From: a virus
Taxonomy: Duplodnaviria; Heunggongvirae; Uroviricota; Caudoviricetes
Length of the DNA stretch: 31,096 bases
Direction: 5' to 3' (one strand)
Virus record (IMG/VR): IMGVR_UViG_2529293246_000004
Part shown: positions 19,274 to 27,513 of the stretch, in pieces
Layout: every line of letters starts with the position of its first letter
How positions within the stretch are numbered: position 1 is the first letter of the stretch
The notes under the pieces: model-generated
Seen by the model: the letters and a program-made list of their open reading frames with translations, nothing else
Database searches by the model: none
What the model was told of the DNA's origin: nothing
Made by a program: the position numbers and the translations under genes

Positions 19274-19446
19274 TGTCAGGAGTCCTGAATAGTGATTAGA
19301 GGAGTCACATGTCGGCATCAGTTTCCCGACGATACGCATCCTCCGCCATCAGTCCCGGATGGCTTATCACTGACACAACAGCACCTTAGCGAATCGCGGG
19401 GCGCGACTCAGTAGCCTTGCCGTGTATTCATCACGGCGAGGTATTC
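19274..19446. promoter_or_regulatory. Divergent late-promoter region (PO leftward, PP rightward)
   Basis: 173-bp gap between divergently transcribed O (minus) and P (plus), as in P2. Contains short dyads (for example CGTGtattcatCACG). Individual Ogr sites were not confidently resolved. Confidence 0.4.
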
Positions 19447-21219
19447 ATGACCATCACCACAGACACCACTCTTTTACACGACCCGCGTCGTCAGGCGGCG
19501 CTGCTGTACTGGCAGGGATTTTCCGTGCCGCAGATTGCCGCCATGTTGCAGATGAAACGCCCGACGGTGCAGAGCTGGAAACAGCGCGACGGCTGGGACA
19601 GCGTTGCCCCCATCAGCCGTGTCGAAATGAGTCTGGAAGCGCGGCTGACCCAGCTCATCATCAAACCGCAGAAAACCGGCGGTGACTTCAAGGAAATTGA
19701 CCTGCTCGGACGCCAGATTGAACGACTGGCACGGGTAAACCGTTACAGTCAGACCGGCAACGAGGCAGACCTTAATCCGAACGTCGCTAACCGCAACAAA
19801 GGCGGGCGGCGCAAACCGAAAAAGAATTTTTTCAGTGACGAGGCCATCGAAAAGCTGGAGCAGATTTTCTTTGAGCAGTCTTTCGAATATCAGTTGCACT
19901 GGTATCGCGCCGGGCTTGAGCACCGCATCCGCGATATCCTGAAATCCCGCCAGATTGGTGCAACGTTTTATTTTTCCCGCGAGGCGCTGCTGCGCGCCCT
20001 GAAAACCGGTCATAACCAGATTTTTCTGTCGGCCAGTAAAACGCAGGCGTATGTGTTCCGCGAATACATCATCGCCTTTGCCCGGCTGGTTGACGTTGAC
20101 CTGACCGGTGACCCGATTGTCCTGGGCAATAACGGCGCAAAACTGATTTTTCTCGGCACCAACTCCAACACCGCACAGAGCCATAACGGCGACCTGTACG
20201 TCGACGAGATTTTCTGGATCCCGAATTTTCAGGTACTGCGTAAGGTGGCATCAGGTATGGCCTCACAGAGTCACCTGCGCTCGACCTATTTCTCCACCCC
20301 GTCCACGCTGGCGCACGACGCCTACCCGTTCTGGTCGGGTGAACTGTTCAACCGGGGACGCGCCAGCGCCGCCGAACGCGTGGAAATCGACGTCAGTCAT
20401 AACGCCCTTGCCGGCGGGCTTCTCTGTGCGGACGGCCAGTGGCGACAGATTGTCACCATTGAGGACGCCCTGAAAGGCGGCTGCACGCTGTTCGACATTG
20501 AGCAGCTCAAACGCGAAAACAGCGCCGACGATTTTAAAAACCTGTTCATGTGTGAATTTGTTGACGACAAGGCATCGGTGTTCCCGTTCGAGGAGCTGCA
20601 ACGCTGCATGGTCGACACGCTGGAAGAATGGGAAGACTATGCACCGTTTGCCGCCAATCCGTTCGGCTCCCGCCCGGTATGGATTGGTTACGACCCGTCA
20701 CACCGTGGCGACAGCGCCGGATGCGTGGTGCTGGCACCGCCGGTGGTGGCCGGTGGCAAATTCAGAATACTTGAGCGTCACCAGTGGAAAGGCATGGACT
20801 TTGCCACCCAGGCTGAATCCATCCGCAAACTCACCGAAAAATATAACGTCGAATACATCGGTATTGATGCCACCGGCCTCGGTGTCGGCGTGTTCCAGCT
20901 CGTGCGCTCGTTCTATCCTGCCGCGCGCGATATCCGCTACACACCGGAAATGAAAACCGCAATGGTGCTCAAGGCCAAAGACGTTATCCGCCGTGGCTGT
21001 CTGGAATATGACGTCAGCGCCACCGACATCACCAGCTCGTTCATGGCTATCCGCAAGACCATGACCAGCAGCGGACGCAGCGCCACCTATGAGGCCAGCC
21101 GCAGCGAGGAAGCCAGCCACGCCGACCTCGCCTGGGCGACCATGCACGCCCTGTTAAATGAGCCACTCACCGCCGGTATCAGCACCCCGCTGACATCCAC
21201 CATTCTGGAGTTTTACTGA
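19447..21219 (+). CDS. P: Terminase large (ATPase) subunit P
   Basis: ORF 19417..21219 trimmed to MTITTDTTLLHDPRRQAALLYWQGF..., giving 590 aa as in P2 gpP. Confidence 0.9.
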   Translation: MTITTDTTLLHDPRRQAALLYWQGFSVPQIAAMLQMKRPTVQSWKQRDGWDSVAPISRVEMSLEARLTQLIIKPQKTGGDFKEIDLLGRQIERLARVNRYSQTGNEADLNPNVANRNKGGRRKPKKNFFSDEAIEKLEQIFFEQSFEYQLHWYRAGLEHRIRDILKSRQIGATFYFSREALLRALKTGHNQIFLSASKTQAYVFREYIIAFARLVDVDLTGDPIVLGNNGAKLIFLGTNSNTAQSHNGDLYVDEIFWIPNFQVLRKVASGMASQSHLRSTYFSTPSTLAHDAYPFWSGELFNRGRASAAERVEIDVSHNALAGGLLCADGQWRQIVTIEDALKGGCTLFDIEQLKRENSADDFKNLFMCEFVDDKASVFPFEELQRCMVDTLEEWEDYAPFAANPFGSRPVWIGYDPSHRGDSAGCVVLAPPVVAGGKFRILERHQWKGMDFATQAESIRKLTEKYNVEYIGIDATGLGVGVFQLVRSFYPAARDIRYTPEMKTAMVLKAKDVIRRGCLEYDVSATDITSSFMAIRKTMTSSGRSATYEASRSEEASHADLAWATMHALLNEPLTAGISTPLTSTILEFY

Positions 21220-22253
21220 TGAGCAAGAAAAAAGGGAAAACACCGCAACCTGCGGCAAAAACAATGACCGCCAGCGCCCCGAAAATGGAGGCATTCACCT
21301 TTGGTGAGCCGGTGCCGGTACTCGACCGCCGTGACATTCTGGATTACGTCGAGTGCATCAGTAACGGCAGATGGTATGAGCCGCCGGTCAGCTTTACCGG
21401 TCTGGCAAAAAGCCTGCGTGCTGCCGTGCATCACAGCTCACCGATTTACGTCAAACGCAATATTCTGGCTTCAACGTTTATCCCGCACCCGTGGCTTTCC
21501 CAGCAGGATTTCAGCCGCTTTGTGCTGGATTTTCTGGTGTTCGGTAATGCGTTTCTGGAAAAGCGTTACAGCACCACCGGCAAGGTCATCAGACTGGAAA
21601 CCTCACCGGCAAAATATACCCGCCGTGGCGTGGAGGAGGATGTTTACTGGTGGGTGCCTTCCTTCAACGAGCCGACAGCCTTCGCACCTGGCTCCGTGTT
21701 TCATCTGCTGGAGCCGGATATTAATCAGGAGCTGTACGGCCTGCCGGAATATCTCAGCGCCCTTAACTCTGCCTGGCTGAATGAGTCGGCCACGCTGTTC
21801 CGCCGCAAGTATTACGAAAACGGCGCGCATGCCGGATACATCATGTACGTTACCGATGCCGTGCAGGATCGCAACGATATCGAAATGCTTCGCGAAAACA
21901 TGGTGAAGTCGAAAGGCCGCAACAACTTTAAAAACCTGTTTCTCTATGCCCCGCAGGGGAAAGCCGACGGCATTAAAATTATCCCGCTCAGTGAAGTGGC
22001 GACGAAGGACGATTTTTTTAATATCAAAAAAGCCAGCGCCGCTGACCTGCTGGACGCACACCGCATCCCCTTTCAGTTGATGGGTGGCAAGCCGGAGAAC
22101 GTCGGGTCACTGGGCGATATTGAGAAAGTGGCAAAGGTCTTTGTCCGCAATGAGCTAATCCCGTTACAGGACAGGATTCGGGAAATAAACGGCTGGCTCG
22201 GCCAGGAGGTCATCCGCTTTAAAAACTACTCACTGGACACTGACAACGGCTGA
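21219..22253 (+). CDS. Q: Portal protein Q
   Basis: 344 aa (P2 gpQ length). ATG overlaps the P stop. Last gene before cos. Confidence 0.9.
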   Translation: MSKKKGKTPQPAAKTMTASAPKMEAFTFGEPVPVLDRRDILDYVECISNGRWYEPPVSFTGLAKSLRAAVHHSSPIYVKRNILASTFIPHPWLSQQDFSRFVLDFLVFGNAFLEKRYSTTGKVIRLETSPAKYTRRGVEEDVYWWVPSFNEPTAFAPGSVFHLLEPDINQELYGLPEYLSALNSAWLNESATLFRRKYYENGAHAGYIMYVTDAVQDRNDIEMLRENMVKSKGRNNFKNLFLYAPQGKADGIKIIPLSEVATKDDFFNIKKASAADLLDAHRIPFQLMGGKPENVGSLGDIEKVAKVFVRNELIPLQDRIREINGWLGQEVIRFKNYSLDTDNG

Positions 22254-22422: not shown

Positions 22423-22441
22423 GTGCTTTCCCCGCCTCGCC
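22423..22441. other. cos: cos site (19-nt cohesive-end sequence), internal to the element
   Basis: Plus strand reads GTGCTTTCCCCGCCTCGCC, the reverse complement of GGCGAGGCGGGGAAAGCAC, which I recall as the P2 cohesive end. The adjacent reverse-complement sequence (ACTGCGCGCTG...GGTGGTGCTGATT) also resembles the P2 left end. Confidence 0.8.
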
Positions 22442-22679
22442 CGCCCGCTTCATGGAGCGGTTTTAATGCAGTTGCATAGATACTATGGATCCGCACCAGT
22501 CCTGACCGCACGCAGCCTGAACGGACATCCCCGACGCATGCAAAAACATTCACTTGTTGCATGCAACGGCTTATTTAATGACAAACCAACTTAAATTTAC
22601 AAAATCCACAGGTATGGATACTTTGCGAACATGATAGGCTTACGAGAATTATCGTGCCTGTTTTTGAACGGAGAAAGTT

Positions 22680-23621
22680 ATGCAAGGTGAAGTTGACGAA
22701 CAGCAACCAAATGAGATTATTTCGGAGTTTGGATACTATCCAGTAGAAGTTAACATTGAGACTGAACAATTTTCTTTGCGTACTTTACCCGGTCTTATTG
22801 AGAAAGTGGAACGTATTAACAATGATAAAAACGTTGTTAATGGTTGGATATACCCTGGGAATCGAGAGGTATATAACCTTAATGGTGACTCATGCACAAT
22901 GCCTTATAGTTACCGAGTATTCGGCATGCCCAAAACGCACACACTAAAATTAAAAAACACATCCTCGTTAGAAACTCTCAACTTTGTTGTGTGGTGCCTC
23001 TCTTTTTTCAAGGGTATAAGATTGACAACCACTGACGCTGGTTTTCTTGATGCAACCACTATCAAGCCCACTAAGTTAACCGATTTTATTCTCGTTGGAT
23101 GCTCTGAAAAAGAAGTCATAGAACTGGCTCTTAATTATATAACTAACAAACAAAAGGATGCGCACTCCCCCAAAAGAATTGCGGCAGTGGTGCATGCGCT
23201 ATTCTTATCTCAAAACCCACAATACCTTCCTTTTGAAAAATTCCAGTACCTTTACATGGCACTTGATGGTTGCTTTGCTTTATCGTGGGCTGAGCATGAC
23301 AAGGCTCCTGATAAAACCCAGCCAAATCATTCCAAGCGATTAAAGTGGATGTGCAGAATTTATGGGTTATCAATCCCCACATGGGTATCAGGCAAAAAAA
23401 ACATTTCTGGCATCCGCAATGATAATTTTCATGAGGCTATTTTTTTTGGCCAACCACTTGGTTTTTCCAGTGTTAACAACAATCAATATGGTAACGATAT
23501 ATTACTGCAAATGCAGAAACTCGTTTGTCGCCTATTAGCGGCAATACTGTCGGTTAATGATTGCGGTTATCTCAAATCTTCGGTCAACTCACGAGAGTAC
23601 CATTCATTAAAATTAACTTAA
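22680..23621 (+). CDS. Hypothetical cargo protein, 313 aa, at the position P2 uses for old
   Basis: ATG at 22680 with GGAGA 7 nt upstream. AT-rich. I recognise no conserved motif and see no Walker A P-loop. Opposite strand to the early operon, as P2 old is. Confidence 0.6.
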   Translation: MQGEVDEQQPNEIISEFGYYPVEVNIETEQFSLRTLPGLIEKVERINNDKNVVNGWIYPGNREVYNLNGDSCTMPYSYRVFGMPKTHTLKLKNTSSLETLNFVVWCLSFFKGIRLTTTDAGFLDATTIKPTKLTDFILVGCSEKEVIELALNYITNKQKDAHSPKRIAAVVHALFLSQNPQYLPFEKFQYLYMALDGCFALSWAEHDKAPDKTQPNHSKRLKWMCRIYGLSIPTWVSGKKNISGIRNDNFHEAIFFGQPLGFSSVNNNQYGNDILLQMQKLVCRLLAAILSVNDCGYLKSSVNSREYHSLKLT

Positions 23622-23652
23622 TGCTAACGCCTCACTTCGTTCGTTGTTCAAC

Positions 23653-23690
23653 CCCGCCAGCACTGAAAACATGTTTCATTGCTGGCGGGG
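23653..23690 (+). terminator. Long hairpin downstream of the 313-aa gene
   Basis: CCCCGCCAGC ... GCTGGCGGGG 10-bp stem around an 18-nt loop that is itself palindromic, followed by TTCTCT. Begins about 30 nt after the stop codon. Confidence 0.45.
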
Positions 23691-23941
23691 TTCTCTATCG
23701 TCTGCGTGGTGGCGGCGCAAGGCTGGACTGACCGATATAGTTAAGCTGTTCGTAATTATCCCTGACTATTTCGGCACACCCGACTAGCTCATCGGGCGTC
23801 AGATTTTCGTTGACCATAATCTGCTGTAAACGGTGAACAATGGCCATCAACCTGACACTTTTGGTGTTATATGTGGTATCTCACATGAGATTACTGACCA
23901 AGGTGCATCTTGGTTGACTCATTTCATATCCATCCACACCA

Positions 23942-24622
23942 CTACATCTTTATTGCATATTTATTAAAAGACGCCCAGTTCAACAAAAAAACATTATTCA
24001 TATACCATTCAATATAATTTTTATTTTTAGATTGACTGTCAAGTAGCACACAAACATCAACCTGTTTATCAATCAATTTTGCAATATAAACCACAAACTC
24101 AACACTCGAATATCTCTTTGTGCCTAGCAAATATAATATTTCATCTGACAAATAATTAGACTCATGTGAAAAGACATTATCATTTAACAAAATCAATCCG
24201 CCAATCGAGTCATTTAAATCCAAAACATCCTTTGTTGCATTTATTTGCTTATTAGCTTCTTTAACTACCTTTGTTTTAATATTTTCATAAGCAAAGTTCA
24301 TTATATCATTTCTAAATCGCTTTGAGTCTGGGTGTCTTTTTATCAACTCTTCTAAATGAATAGCACCATGCCAGTTTTTTGCAAGCCAACTATCAGTTTT
24401 AACCAACTCATTCAGTTTATCATTGACATTCTTGACCCTGTCAGAAAAAAGACTTTTCATCTCCAAAATTATCTTTTTATTATCAATAAGATAATCTGCC
24501 ATCTTGCGATTCTGACCATCCTTCATCCGGAACTTATGATGAATATCATCAATAGAAATCCCTTTTTCATGCTCAACAATGAATCTCTTAACATTGTTTT
24601 CTAATTCGCTGTATTGTTTCAT
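23942..24622 (-). CDS. Hypothetical cargo protein, 226 aa, at the position P2 uses for tin
   Basis: ATG at 24622 with GGGGGA upstream. Markedly AT-rich, Lys/Asn-rich protein with no motif I recognise. Directly downstream of a small gene on the same strand. Confidence 0.6.
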   Translation of the reverse strand: MKQYSELENNVKRFIVEHEKGISIDDIHHKFRMKDGQNRKMADYLIDNKKIILEMKSLFSDRVKNVNDKLNELVKTDSWLAKNWHGAIHLEELIKRHPDSKRFRNDIMNFAYENIKTKVVKEANKQINATKDVLDLNDSIGGLILLNDNVFSHESNYLSDEILYLLGTKRYSSVEFVVYIAKLIDKQVDVCVLLDSQSKNKNYIEWYMNNVFLLNWASFNKYAIKM

Positions 24623-24649
24623 TCTTTCCCCCGTGAATTTTATTGTGAT

Positions 24650-24841
24650 TCACTTACGTGGACGACACAGCATACCACTTTTACTCTCTGCTATTTCCAG
24701 TAAATCAATGGAGAATGACTCCTCGTGCAAAACTCCTTCTTTATCATGCCAAATACATTTAGCATGAGTCTCAGTAGAGTCAGATACAGTCATTTTAAAT
24801 CCACCGCTTTTCAAACAAACAACATCTGCAGGCTTTAACAT
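24650..24841 (-). CDS. Small DUF2158/YodC-like protein, 63 aa
   Basis: ORF 24650..24925 trimmed to the ATG at 24841, which has GGAGA 5-6 nt upstream. Sequence MLKPADVVCLKSGGFKMTVSDSTETHAKCIWHDKEGVLHEESF resembles the GD-VV-LKSGGP-MTV...C-W core of YodC-like small proteins. First gene of a two-gene minus-strand unit. Confidence 0.55.
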   Translation of the reverse strand: MLKPADVVCLKSGGFKMTVSDSTETHAKCIWHDKEGVLHEESFSIDLLEIAESKSGMLCRPRK

Positions 24842-24968
24842 TTTTGTCTCCAACATTTTTAAGTAATGCATTATAACATAATGATATTGACGTAGATTTA
24901 ATGCATGCAACCATATAAAAAACAATCAATTACAGTCAAAACTGCTTAATACTGTATAGATGAGATCA

Positions 24969-27248
24969 TTACTCAAATTGATGCCAGAATCCCGGCCACT
25001 CATCAGCGACCGGATACGTGAATTTTTTCCCGTCATAATTTACGGTCGCGCCACGCGCCAGCGCCTCAAGCTCCCATCGCTGCGGCCTGATACCGTTCTG
25101 AGCAAGGTCAACGCGGATACGGGTGATTTGCAATCGTTCAGACCGGCTCAGTCTGGCCGATGGTGCAATTTCATGCGGTTTTAACGGGCTTCCGTTTCTT
25201 TGTTGACGATTTGGCGTTCTCAGCCCGTGTTTTAATGCGCCCCTGAGCGCCCTCACGACATCCGGGTCATTCCATTCGATAACACCGTCATCAGCCAGAT
25301 TAAGCACGGCTGCGGCGTGTTCAGAAGGCGTGGGAGCCGGTAACGAAGTATTACCGCCGGTGAGCTTTCCACAGTTATTGACAGGACTCCGAGGCGCGGC
25401 GATGCCGCTTTTTAAAGTCAAAGGCTCAACGACCGGCACTTTCGGAACAATGCGCCAGTCCGTCGTTCTGGTGATATGAATATGACGCGCGCCGAGATGC
25501 GGCGCGTAAATGCCGACCACTCTCTCGACTTCTTCCTCGTACTCGTTAACGTCATCCGACGGGCTACGGGCAACCCTGACAGTCTGGCAATCGCGCGGGA
25601 CATTTGCCCCACCCTGCGCGCTGATATACAGCGCAAAATCACCACTGTCTGCGGCGGCGCGTGCAGCCTCGACGCGCTCGTCAAACTCATCAGCAATGCT
25701 GACGCCGCGAGGCAATTTGCGTAGTTCACGGTAAGCCCCCATTGTCGGCAGGCCAACCGTTTTAAATTGCGGAATGCGCCACGTTGACGCCCATGCGGTA
25801 ACAGCCGCGGCAGTATCTTTCAGCGGTCTGCCGGTATCGTTATCGAGCTGCCCATCCAGTGCATAGCCGTCGATATTTTTTGAGATGTATTTCGCGATAT
25901 ACCCCGCAGCACCGCCCCGGTTAAGGTGTTTTTCCTGAAAACGGTTTCGCGCGGCTCCTCTTTCGTCGCCATCCTCTTTGAGCGCATAGCGACGCATGAT
26001 TTCGATAATCTGGTTACGCTGGCGTGGATGACAAAAAAGCATCATATGCCAGTGCGGCGTTCCGTCGTGGTGTGGCTCGACGACACGCAAACCGTAGACC
26101 TGTAAATCATTATCCTTGAATGCCGTGCGCATCAGGCTCCAGATACGGCAGAGATAACGCTGCGCATCCTTTGGATTAAATGCCTCATCGTTCCAGCCGT
26201 GATTAAGCTGAACGGTTTTACTTTCGCCTTTTCCGACCTGACGTGTCGGGTGATACTTTGACGGCGCGGTCAGCGTGATAAACATCCCCAAATCACCCTC
26301 TGCGGCGGCGTAACGCTCAATACCGGCAATGGTGTTCATCAGCTCCATCCGGCGAATTTCTGGATTAGAAATACTGCCCATCACCTTACTGATAAGGTCG
26401 ATGCGCTCGCCGGTTTCCCTGTTTTCAAGGTCACACGATTTAAGAAATTCCAGATTTGCCTGGCGGCGCGCACGCACATCACGAATGGCATGTTTACTGG
26501 CATAAGGAGAACGGTCTTTATTGACCTCCCCGACAGCAATCAGTAACGCCTCATGCCAGCGCATACGCTGGCCTTTAAGCTGACTAATCCACCACTCATC
26601 GTTAAACAGACGGGCAATGGCAGAATATGCCTGCCTCGTGGTCATCTGTCCTTTACTGTATTTTTTCCAGTAGAGCGGGGAAATATTGAAAGCACGTGCA
26701 GCGCCAGCAACATGACCATACAGGTGAGCCTGCGCCTCATCCGTAAACAGCGATTCTTTTTCACCATGCGCATCAACCCATGCATCGCAGAGTTCCTCAT
26801 ACATCATGAAAAGCTGCGATGAGATACGGGCGGCAAACTTTTTCAGCTCCTTGTCATTCATTCCAGGCAGGCGCGCATAGTGGTCACGCTCTGCCAGAAA
26901 CAGCAACGACGCGTCGGTGTTCATTTCATGGCGCTGATTCACGCGCTCAATGCGCGGCCATAAACGACGCTGAAAAGTGGATGTGAGGAAATAAAACCCG
27001 TGCACCGGGCTTTTATTGCGCCGGATGTAGTCATAGCGTGAAGTAAACAGCGAACGCAAAAAGTAAGGCAGGCGGTTAATCGTGGATAAAACACCTTGCA
27101 CCTGACGCATCTCGTCACGTGTAAGGGGTCTTTCGCGCCCGACGGCCTCGCGTGGCGCGTTCCATGCATAAGCACCGGTAAACGTCTTACCGGTGCCTGC
27201 GGCAAATGCTGACGGAGGGACAAAACGCCCGGAGGCTTTAACGTCCAT
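24969..27248 (-). CDS. A: Replication initiation protein A (rolling-circle nicking endonuclease)
   Basis: ORF 24969..27290 (773 aa from a TTG) trimmed to the first ATG at 27248, giving 759 aa, close to P2 gpA (761 aa). Last gene of the early operon. Confidence 0.88.
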   Translation of the reverse strand: MDVKASGRFVPPSAFAAGTGKTFTGAYAWNAPREAVGRERPLTRDEMRQVQGVLSTINRLPYFLRSLFTSRYDYIRRNKSPVHGFYFLTSTFQRRLWPRIERVNQRHEMNTDASLLFLAERDHYARLPGMNDKELKKFAARISSQLFMMYEELCDAWVDAHGEKESLFTDEAQAHLYGHVAGAARAFNISPLYWKKYSKGQMTTRQAYSAIARLFNDEWWISQLKGQRMRWHEALLIAVGEVNKDRSPYASKHAIRDVRARRQANLEFLKSCDLENRETGERIDLISKVMGSISNPEIRRMELMNTIAGIERYAAAEGDLGMFITLTAPSKYHPTRQVGKGESKTVQLNHGWNDEAFNPKDAQRYLCRIWSLMRTAFKDNDLQVYGLRVVEPHHDGTPHWHMMLFCHPRQRNQIIEIMRRYALKEDGDERGAARNRFQEKHLNRGGAAGYIAKYISKNIDGYALDGQLDNDTGRPLKDTAAAVTAWASTWRIPQFKTVGLPTMGAYRELRKLPRGVSIADEFDERVEAARAAADSGDFALYISAQGGANVPRDCQTVRVARSPSDDVNEYEEEVERVVGIYAPHLGARHIHITRTTDWRIVPKVPVVEPLTLKSGIAAPRSPVNNCGKLTGGNTSLPAPTPSEHAAAVLNLADDGVIEWNDPDVVRALRGALKHGLRTPNRQQRNGSPLKPHEIAPSARLSRSERLQITRIRVDLAQNGIRPQRWELEALARGATVNYDGKKFTYPVADEWPGFWHQFE

Positions 27249-27513
27249 GTGAGCCAAAAGCCTCTGAACAACGCTTGCTGAGTTGCTCAACCTGCGCGTT
27301 TAAATCAGCAAAAGATTTTGCGCTTCCGGTCAGAATATCGTGATGCATCAGGCCGGAAACGAGCTGGCTTAATTTCGGGTAATAACCAACCACCGCCAGC
27401 CATTCCTGACCGGCGTTTTTACCGCTTTCCGCTCTCTTTTTCTCGTGGAGAATAAACTGAAAGCTGTCACTGGTAACGACATAACGTTCGCCAATTTCAA
27501 TACGAATACTCAT
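27238..27513 (-). CDS. Hypothetical early-operon protein, 91 aa
   Basis: ATG at 27513 with GGAGA upstream. Stop overlaps the A start; start overlaps the stop of the upstream gene (ATGA). Position of the small orfs preceding A in P2. Confidence 0.6.
   Translation of the reverse strand: MSIRIEIGERYVVTSDSFQFILHEKKRAESGKNAGQEWLAVVGYYPKLSQLVSGLMHHDILTGSAKSFADLNAQVEQLSKRCSEAFGSHGR

Follow-up and report, generated by a model that had tools for sequence, protein, structure and literature searches.

A truncated small phage gene and a conserved RNA hairpin lie between two cargo cassettes in the gpA-gpQ hotspot of a P2-like phage genome

Background

The region between gpA and gpQ of P2-like phages is known as the 'TO' (tin/old) variability hotspot, for which Odegrip et al. 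2006 are reportedly also to be credited. The interval between gpA and the portal gene is documented as the 'tin/old' hotspot of these phages (Rousset et al. 2022, PMC9122126), and the locus table of that work lists DUF2158 and three hypothetical genes with the protein accessions of the arrangement described here. Earlier studies treated gpA-gpQ as one hotspot (PMC9122126), whereas the same locus is described here as two cargo slots parted by a semi-conserved island, which consists of a 68-aa-type gene (ORF68) and an RNA hairpin.

Several described systems resemble parts of this island. PHROG 11386, an uncharacterised P2-like phage protein, is like the small ORF of our locus in its sequence, its position on the gpA strand and its trailing hairpin; however, our copy is without the first 18 residues and the start codon and is not coupled to the upstream gene. 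An analogous cassette replacement is found at the same place in P2 itself, where orf91 (DUF3850) lies beside old-tin, is shortened (109 aa vs 150 aa in relatives) and directly abuts tin. In P2, ORF68 and the hairpin were removed wholly by the cassette, whereas the cassette studied here took away the DUF3850 gene but no more than the 5' end of ORF68. The hairpin resembles intrinsic terminators and terminator-bounded 'moron' insertions, being GC-rich, stable, placed at an operon end and directly followed by cargo, but it differs from intrinsic terminators in having no U-tract on the sense strand. Finally, the domain of PF06689 proteins occurs at the C-terminus of distant ORF68 relatives (from Serratia where named), whereas our copy and the Escherichia/Salmonella-type members have no zinc ribbon and carry a variable Pro/Arg-rich tail instead.

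Results

Neighbouring genes

The window, i.e., the whole stretch of 31,096 nucleotides analysed here, is a P2-like (Peduovirus) phage genome as judged by its gene order against the usual P2 map. The region was found with 100% identity in a prophage of E. coli GD33 and with 99.7% identity in the P2-EC67 hotspot record (GenBank AM157369), whose annotation lists ORF73, ORF226 and ORF313 and leaves the small ORF unannotated. The genes around the segment of interest are as follows.

19417-21219, plus strand: terminase, in P2-like gene order
21219-22253, plus strand: portal, in P2-like gene order
22680-23621, plus strand: ORF313, inside cargo cassette 2
23942-24622, minus strand: ORF226, inside cargo cassette 1
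24650-24925 or shorter, minus strand: DUF2158 ORF, inside cargo cassette 1
24969-27290, minus strand: replication endonuclease gpA, in P2-like gene order

ORF226 and ORF313 have no family in Pfam or NCBIfam, and no PADLOC match was obtained for ORF226, ORF313 or the DUF2158 ORF. The three are candidate components of an anti-phage system or of some other accessory system. For the DUF2158 ORF, the annotated starts disagree (91 aa from a TTG in the window, 73 aa in AM157369, 63 aa in RefSeq). Just 5' of this ORF lies a sigma-70-like site (TTGACT-18-TATGGT, 24939-24910, minus strand), which could drive expression of the cassette in the lysogen.

The small ORF is a gene fragment that lacks its 5' end

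The sequence-only reading had described the segment 23700-23941 as a GC-richer spacer between convergent AT-rich cargo genes, containing a 50-codon minus-strand ORF with a poor ribosome-binding site. These observations were borne out. ORF313 (plus) and ORF226 (minus) converge on the segment, and its GC content is 0.471, compared with 0.322 and 0.396 in the flanking cassettes. The ORF runs from an ATG at 23847, or from a TTG at 23850, and its product is exactly MAIVHRLQQIMVNENLTPDELVGCAEIVRDNYEQLNYIGQSSLAPPPRRR. The anti-SD duplex energy 5' of the ATG is only -3.4 kcal/mol (regional ATG mean, -2.6; ORF226, -8.6), and the AGG involved is only 3 nt from the ATG.

23695..23847, minus strand: 50-codon ORF with its stop codon, a 5'-truncated copy of ORF68 matching phrog_11386
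23848..23882, minus strand: remnant of the N-terminal extension of ORF68, homologous to about codons 6-18 of relatives

The 50-aa product matches phrog_11386 (E 1.9e-25) at profile positions 19-69 of 69 only. The ORF thus starts at the internal Met19, which is invariant in the family, and the first 32 residues of the product are identical to those of many full-length members. About 74% of the ORF68 protein is retained, including all invariant family residues, and the copy lies where the family's members lie, namely downstream of gpA, on the gpA strand and before the cos/portal region. The hallmarks of full-length members (67-69 aa, an N-terminal MHRIPGEIPQHKTKNIKL, and an SD or a stop/start overlap) are absent. 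Together with a breakpoint at 23882, the partial profile match confirmed the earlier proposal that the ORF is the 3' end of a longer gene and that cassette replacement removed the 5' end.

The small ORF had no meaningful match in Pfam, NCBIfam or PADLOC (a VBS match at E 0.032 was sub-threshold). No promoter was found directly 5' of it; the sole nearby same-strand promoter-like site falls inside the ORF. The frames of the plus-strand ORFs that overlap the segment carry no coding signal, and these ORFs were rejected as genes. The exact 50-aa product was found on hundreds of contigs. In RefSeq/PGAP, the ORF at 23695-23850 (minus), in its 50/51-aa form, is named 'meiotically up-regulated 80 protein' (WP_250667401.1; L004 2576-2731). 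Because no Pfam or NCBIfam model supports any name, this looks like a spurious propagated label, present on hundreds to thousands of contigs.

ORF68 in relatives

A total of 92 loci were gathered and then analysed by script; a scan of genome contigs gave 5 loci, and viral contigs formed the working set. An intact 68-aa-type ORF with an 18-codon N-terminal extension is present in 75 of the 92. The 68-aa relative from Yersinia phage vB_YpM_46 covers the entire phrog_11386 profile, and a search with it retrieved 195 database proteins, mostly of 67-78 aa, spanning Escherichia, Salmonella, Citrobacter, Enterobacter, Klebsiella and Buttiauxella. Family members read MHRIPGEIPQHKTKNIKL-MAIVHRLQQIMVNENLTPDELVGCAEIVRDNY and then carry a tail, usually with PPRR at its end, whose differences in length preserve the reading frame.

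Codon statistics give an unambiguous coding signal and show strong purifying selection on the whole intact ORF. The pN/pS ratio is 0.08 in the core and 0.14 in the N-terminal extension, whereas the other two frames give 1.2-1.8. The core has 11, 4 and 26 variable sites at first, second and third codon positions, respectively, and the extension has 9, 8 and 15. This pattern in the family ruled out that the ORF arose by chance or that the conserved element is purely non-coding. The intact gene starts at a TAATG overlap with the upstream stop or behind a GAGG-type SD, and the mean SD energy is -6.7 kcal/mol at the intact start and -0.05 kcal/mol at the internal Met19 of relatives. Given the codon signal in both core and extension together with these start signals, ORF68 in relatives is, on sequence evidence, a real, selected 68-aa gene with both parts translated. 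Relatives therefore carry a conserved intact small gene with its own ribosome-binding signals, contrary to the proposal of the sequence-only reading that the ORF derives from an earlier resident cargo gene.

The gene order in relatives is gpA, a DUF3850/ASCH gene and ORF68. DUF3850 is the upstream neighbour in 60 loci, and the common arrangement has a 150-aa gene with DUF3850/ASCH and DUF7415 (the long form of P2 orf91) in place of cassette 1. Downstream of the island, at least 20 unrelated cargo clusters were found, on either strand. Related genes also lie between gpA and the portal gene in prophages of Salmonella, Enterobacter, Buttiauxella, Trabulsiella and Serratia. Considering the neighbour survey, the GC content and the conserved position, ORF68 behaves as a phage gene rather than as cargo. 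In the record of phage Wphi (AY135739, L002 3400-4177), two genes, gp91 and gp92, stand in place of a single DUF3850-type gene, and a frameshift interrupts the ORF68 homologue, which is not annotated; at the closely related OU784549 locus, there is one 150-aa gene and an intact 68-aa ORF. The breaks in Wphi are likely to be indel errors or real frameshifts.

Boundaries of the island and the cassettes

Pairwise comparison with relatives placed breakpoints at 24986, 23882/23883, 23623/23624 and about 22504. They delimit a conserved P2-like island of 259 bp (23624-23882) between two cargo cassettes.

22505..23623, plus strand: cargo cassette 2 (ORF313), GC 0.40, between the island and the cos region
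23883..24985, minus strand: cargo cassette 1 (DUF2158 ORF and ORF226), 1,103 bp, GC 0.32

Backbone homology at 96-98% identity stops at 24986 and resumes at about 22476-22504, beyond cassette 2. Cassette 1 replaces the DUF3850/ASCH gene and also ~17 nt at the 3' end of gpA and ~6 codons at the start of ORF68. The earlier segment was real, but its right edge was set slightly too wide, as homology stops at 23882 and positions 23883-23941 belong to the ORF226 cassette. The GC content of the island itself is 0.494, and that of gpA and the portal gene is about 0.535. The small ORF does not look like defence cargo, since it is found beside at least 20 cargo clusters, has a GC of 0.49 vs 0.32-0.40 and has no PADLOC match.

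On the other side, the sequence GGCGAGGCGGGGAAAGCAC, which we take to be the 19-nt P2 cohesive-end sequence, has an exact match at 22423-22441 (minus). It lies ~65-80 bp from the point where homology resumes, so that cargo slot 2 extends nearly to cos.

The island is ~88% identical to relatives, compared with 96-98% for the flanking gpA and portal regions. This suggests that it may have been exchanged along with cargo or may stem from a more diverged lineage.

Junction and alleles of the truncated copy

Nucleotide homology to intact relatives begins at GAGATACC (23882), which corresponds to intact codons 6-8. A 1-nt length difference puts the upstream part of the 23848..23882 remnant out of frame. 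Accordingly, relatives read MHRIPGEIPQHKTKNIKL followed by MAIVHRLQ..., whereas the window reads ...LM*DTTYNTKSVRL followed by MAIVHRLQ, the full upstream frame being ...MSQPRCTLVSNLM*DTTYNTKSVRL-MAIV. Two further features lie at this junction.

23881..23883, minus strand: TGA stop in the frame of the ORF, CGA in a sister allele
23881..23922, minus strand: 13-codon junction mini-ORF (MSQPRCTLVSNLM*), SD -5.5 kcal/mol

The mini-ORF owes its existence to the cassette junction; its stop codon is the TGA, which lies 33 nt upstream of the ATG of the 50-codon ORF. The sister allele has the same arrangement and is 98.65% identical to the window over 5.2 kb, with 2 nt differing across the compared stretch of junction, ORF and hairpin. 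With CGA in place of TGA, it has an open frame of 63/75 aa (P0065, P0163) behind a moderate SD (-5.5 kcal/mol). The base homologous to the first position of the TGA is C in 54 of the 71 intact loci scored and T in three intact relatives. From the C majority in intact relatives, the TGA is taken as the derived state and, by parsimony, probably arose from CGA.

ORF226 occurs only with a truncated ORF (11 of 11 loci). In the same 11 loci, ORF226 (with the DUF2158 ORF) is always accompanied by ORF313; ORF313 also occurs without ORF226, including beside intact ORF68 in 13 loci. Since ORF226 is found solely with truncated copies and ORF313 also with intact ones, the arrival of the ORF226 cassette is indicated as the truncating event, independently of ORF313.

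The core of the two main truncated alleles differs by 5 synonymous and 0 non-synonymous changes. These synonymous-only differences, together with the intact invariant residues, make continued selection, and hence expression, possible. Meanwhile, four of the 11 truncated loci (L038, L039, L042 and L043; protein P0165, whose product is on 520 contigs) carry R29W at a position that is invariably Arg in the full-length alignment (A2). This substitution may reflect relaxed constraint or clonal spread.

A conserved hairpin and tail follow the gene

The sequence-only reading of the segment as a spacer with a gene remnant held for the truncated gene but overlooked two elements downstream of the stop codon.

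23650..23692, minus strand: conserved RNA hairpin, ~18 bp with one internal mismatch and a 5-nt loop
23624..23649, minus strand: conserved tail (GGTTGAACAACGA..GTGAGGCGTTAG), 26 nt, ending exactly at the downstream cargo junction

The hairpin begins 2 nt past the stop codon of the ORF and has an MFE of -33.7 kcal/mol (z -6.7 vs shuffles). Compensatory double changes were found in 8 of 15 pairs, 95.5% of cells pair, and all covariation measures were above all 500 shuffles and all slid-register controls. Of 41 unique sequences, 40 fold more stably on the ORF-sense strand (mean -26.5 vs -19.2 kcal/mol), although this count overstates independence because the sequences are related. The excess stability arises from many G·U pairs and points to a function in the gpA-strand transcript.

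Specifically, the hairpin has the stable, GC-rich stem-loop of an intrinsic terminator but no U-tract 3' of the stem on the sense strand, which continues GGGGUUGAACAACG. A terminator scan made no call at the hairpin, and the antisense strand has only the U-rich UUCUCUAU. Rfam 15 has no family for it; the sole match was a chance-level miRNA (21 bits vs a gathering threshold of 100, E 0.51). In a Serratia-type distant P2-like relative, a canonical terminator directly follows the orthologous gene.

Conservation runs ~70 nt past the stop codon, to ...GAGGCGTTAG (23624), and sequences diverge by cargo type after ..GGCGTTAG. The hairpin with the ..GAGGCGTTAG tail, as found in Escherichia/Salmonella-type members, is present in the window. 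In a P2-like prophage of E. coli E47 (L097 3501-3587) with reverse-transcriptase cargo, the hairpin and tail are found with neither ORF68 nor the DUF3850 gene, indicating that the hairpin module can persist alone.

The hairpin would mark and protect the 3' end of the early-operon mRNA, as a terminator or a stabiliser, and it may also terminate convergent cargo transcripts. On a speculative and rather improbable view, the near-invariant loop might in addition be recognised as a specific site in the RNA, perhaps by the neighbouring ASCH/DUF3850 protein.

Distribution

Complete E. coli genomes contain the P2-type portal gene at 1,932 places. The island was found at 586 places, and at 388 of these the match spans 80% or more of its length. 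The island is thus present in ~30% of E. coli P2-like prophages and absent from ~70%, and the window-type junction occurs in ~41 genomes of this set. P2 itself has neither ORF68 nor the hairpin, which suggests that the gene is dispensable for P2 growth. The island is semi-conserved and not core. Because it is absent from P2 and from ~70% of E. coli P2-like prophages, the label 'backbone' is only partly apt.

Predicted structure and zinc-finger fusions

An AlphaFold model based on a 41-sequence alignment shows a two-helix hairpin (helices at 10-32 and 36-59, mean pLDDT 77.5), with pLDDT of at least 90 over residues ~21-50. By this model, truncation would cost helix 1 nine of its 23 residues. 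A sequence-profile search of the PDB gave nothing below E 0.5. Foldseek searches with the model yielded no match below E 2.8 in the PDB or BFVD, which is unsurprising for a two-helix hairpin.

An exhaustive profile search of 1.84 billion representatives returned only 32 matches, indicating a narrow family. Six of the 32 are fusions of 101-122 aa in which the helical domain is followed by a C-terminal ClpX-type C4 zinc finger, scoring 43-68 bits for PF06689 (cut-off 27, the Pfam gathering threshold). Four were examined.

L093 6001-6369: ORF68-zinc finger fusion, with sequence relatives that carry Serratia names
L094 6001-6345: ORF68-zinc finger fusion
L096 6001-6327: ORF68-zinc finger fusion
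L095 6001-6321: ORF68-zinc finger fusion in a non-phage, transposase-rich context

Three of these four sit between gpA and the portal gene in P2-like prophages. The ORF of the window and its 68-aa relatives have no Pfam match and no C4 zinc ribbon (CxxC...CxxC). The zinc-binding domain of ClpX is a dimerisation and adaptor/substrate-docking module, and the fusions suggest, as a lead only, a link between the ORF68 family and ClpX. The family could act as a modulator of host ClpX/ClpXP (adaptor, decoy or inhibitor), the Escherichia-type members working via their Pro/Arg-rich tail and the window allele being disabled or attenuated; we regard this as a speculative and rather improbable proposal. 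A likeness of this tail to ClpX-binding peptides was set aside because of the tail's variability. A literature search found nothing relevant on phage-encoded ClpX zinc-domain proteins.

Discussion

The segment is very probably an island between two cassettes, in which ORF68 was truncated by the cassette carrying the DUF2158 ORF and ORF226. Within this account, the homology, the truncation, the breakpoints, the selection on the intact family and the covariation of the hairpin are demonstrated. The course of events would be as follows. The DUF2158-ORF226 cassette would have entered by recombination, with one junction at the end of gpA and the other near codon 6 of ORF68, removing the DUF3850/ASCH gene together with the start codon of ORF68, its SD and the stop/start overlap. 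The 1-nt frame change and the TGA would then have closed the frame made by the junction, leaving a 50-codon ORF that starts at an internal Met behind a weak SD. Such a remnant would be poorly translated or not translated at all and appears to be drifting toward a pseudogene. The island itself may persist because it serves as a shared flank for cassette exchange.

The strongest alternative is that the 50-aa ORF is still a working gene, its core being made from the internal Met either directly or by re-initiation after the mini-ORF, with the N-terminal 18 residues dispensable. That Met is invariant in all aligned homologues, all invariant residues are kept, the residues modelled with confidence by AlphaFold (~21-50, pLDDT of at least 90) are among those retained, and the two main truncated alleles differ only synonymously in the core. 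Moreover, three A-to-G changes just 5' of the ATG lift the SD from ~0 to -3.4 kcal/mol, and the 50-aa product is widespread. However, the resulting SD is near the background mean (-2.6 kcal/mol) and only 3 nt from the ATG, the missing extension is under purifying selection in relatives (pN/pS 0.14), helix 1 is short of 9 of its 23 residues, R29W at an invariant residue is common in truncated copies, and the TGA closed the longer open frame of the sister allele. On balance, a working 50-aa gene is rather unlikely.

The other two alternatives are much weaker. An origin as the stranded 3' end of a former cargo gene, displaced by later cassettes, agrees with the true loss of the 5' end to a cassette and with the documented hotspot at this locus (PMC9122126), but the same gene stands beside at least 20 unrelated cargo clusters, its GC is backbone-like, and related genes occupy the equivalent position in prophages of Salmonella, Enterobacter, Buttiauxella, Trabulsiella and Serratia; former cargo is therefore very unlikely. 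It is more improbable still that the ORF is fortuitous and that what is conserved is solely an element at the DNA or RNA level, such as a terminator, a recombination site or a small RNA. The hairpin and tail are indeed conserved and covarying, and they survive without the ORF in the prophage carrying the reverse transcriptase. Against this stand the variable sites of the ORF (26:11:4 at codon positions 3:1:2), its pN/pS of 0.08 in frame and above 1.2 in the other two frames, the C-terminal length changes that stay in frame and the lack of an Rfam match.

For the window alone, the truncated ORF68 is a routine truncated gene, and the island is a case of ordinary mosaicism that results from the swapping of cassettes at the known gpA-gpQ hotspot. 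Of modest interest besides are the hotspot's bipartite structure and the relatives with a ClpX zinc finger. For annotation, a misleading RefSeq name is corrected, and a gene left out of the annotation of the P2-EC67 and Wphi records is recognised. Through the ClpX zinc-finger fusions, the function of a widespread, uncharacterised phage protein becomes open to testing for the first time. The gpA-gpQ defence hotspot is not one uniform slot: the island splits it and gives sharp cargo junctions, which help to delimit the cassettes and to consider their exchange.
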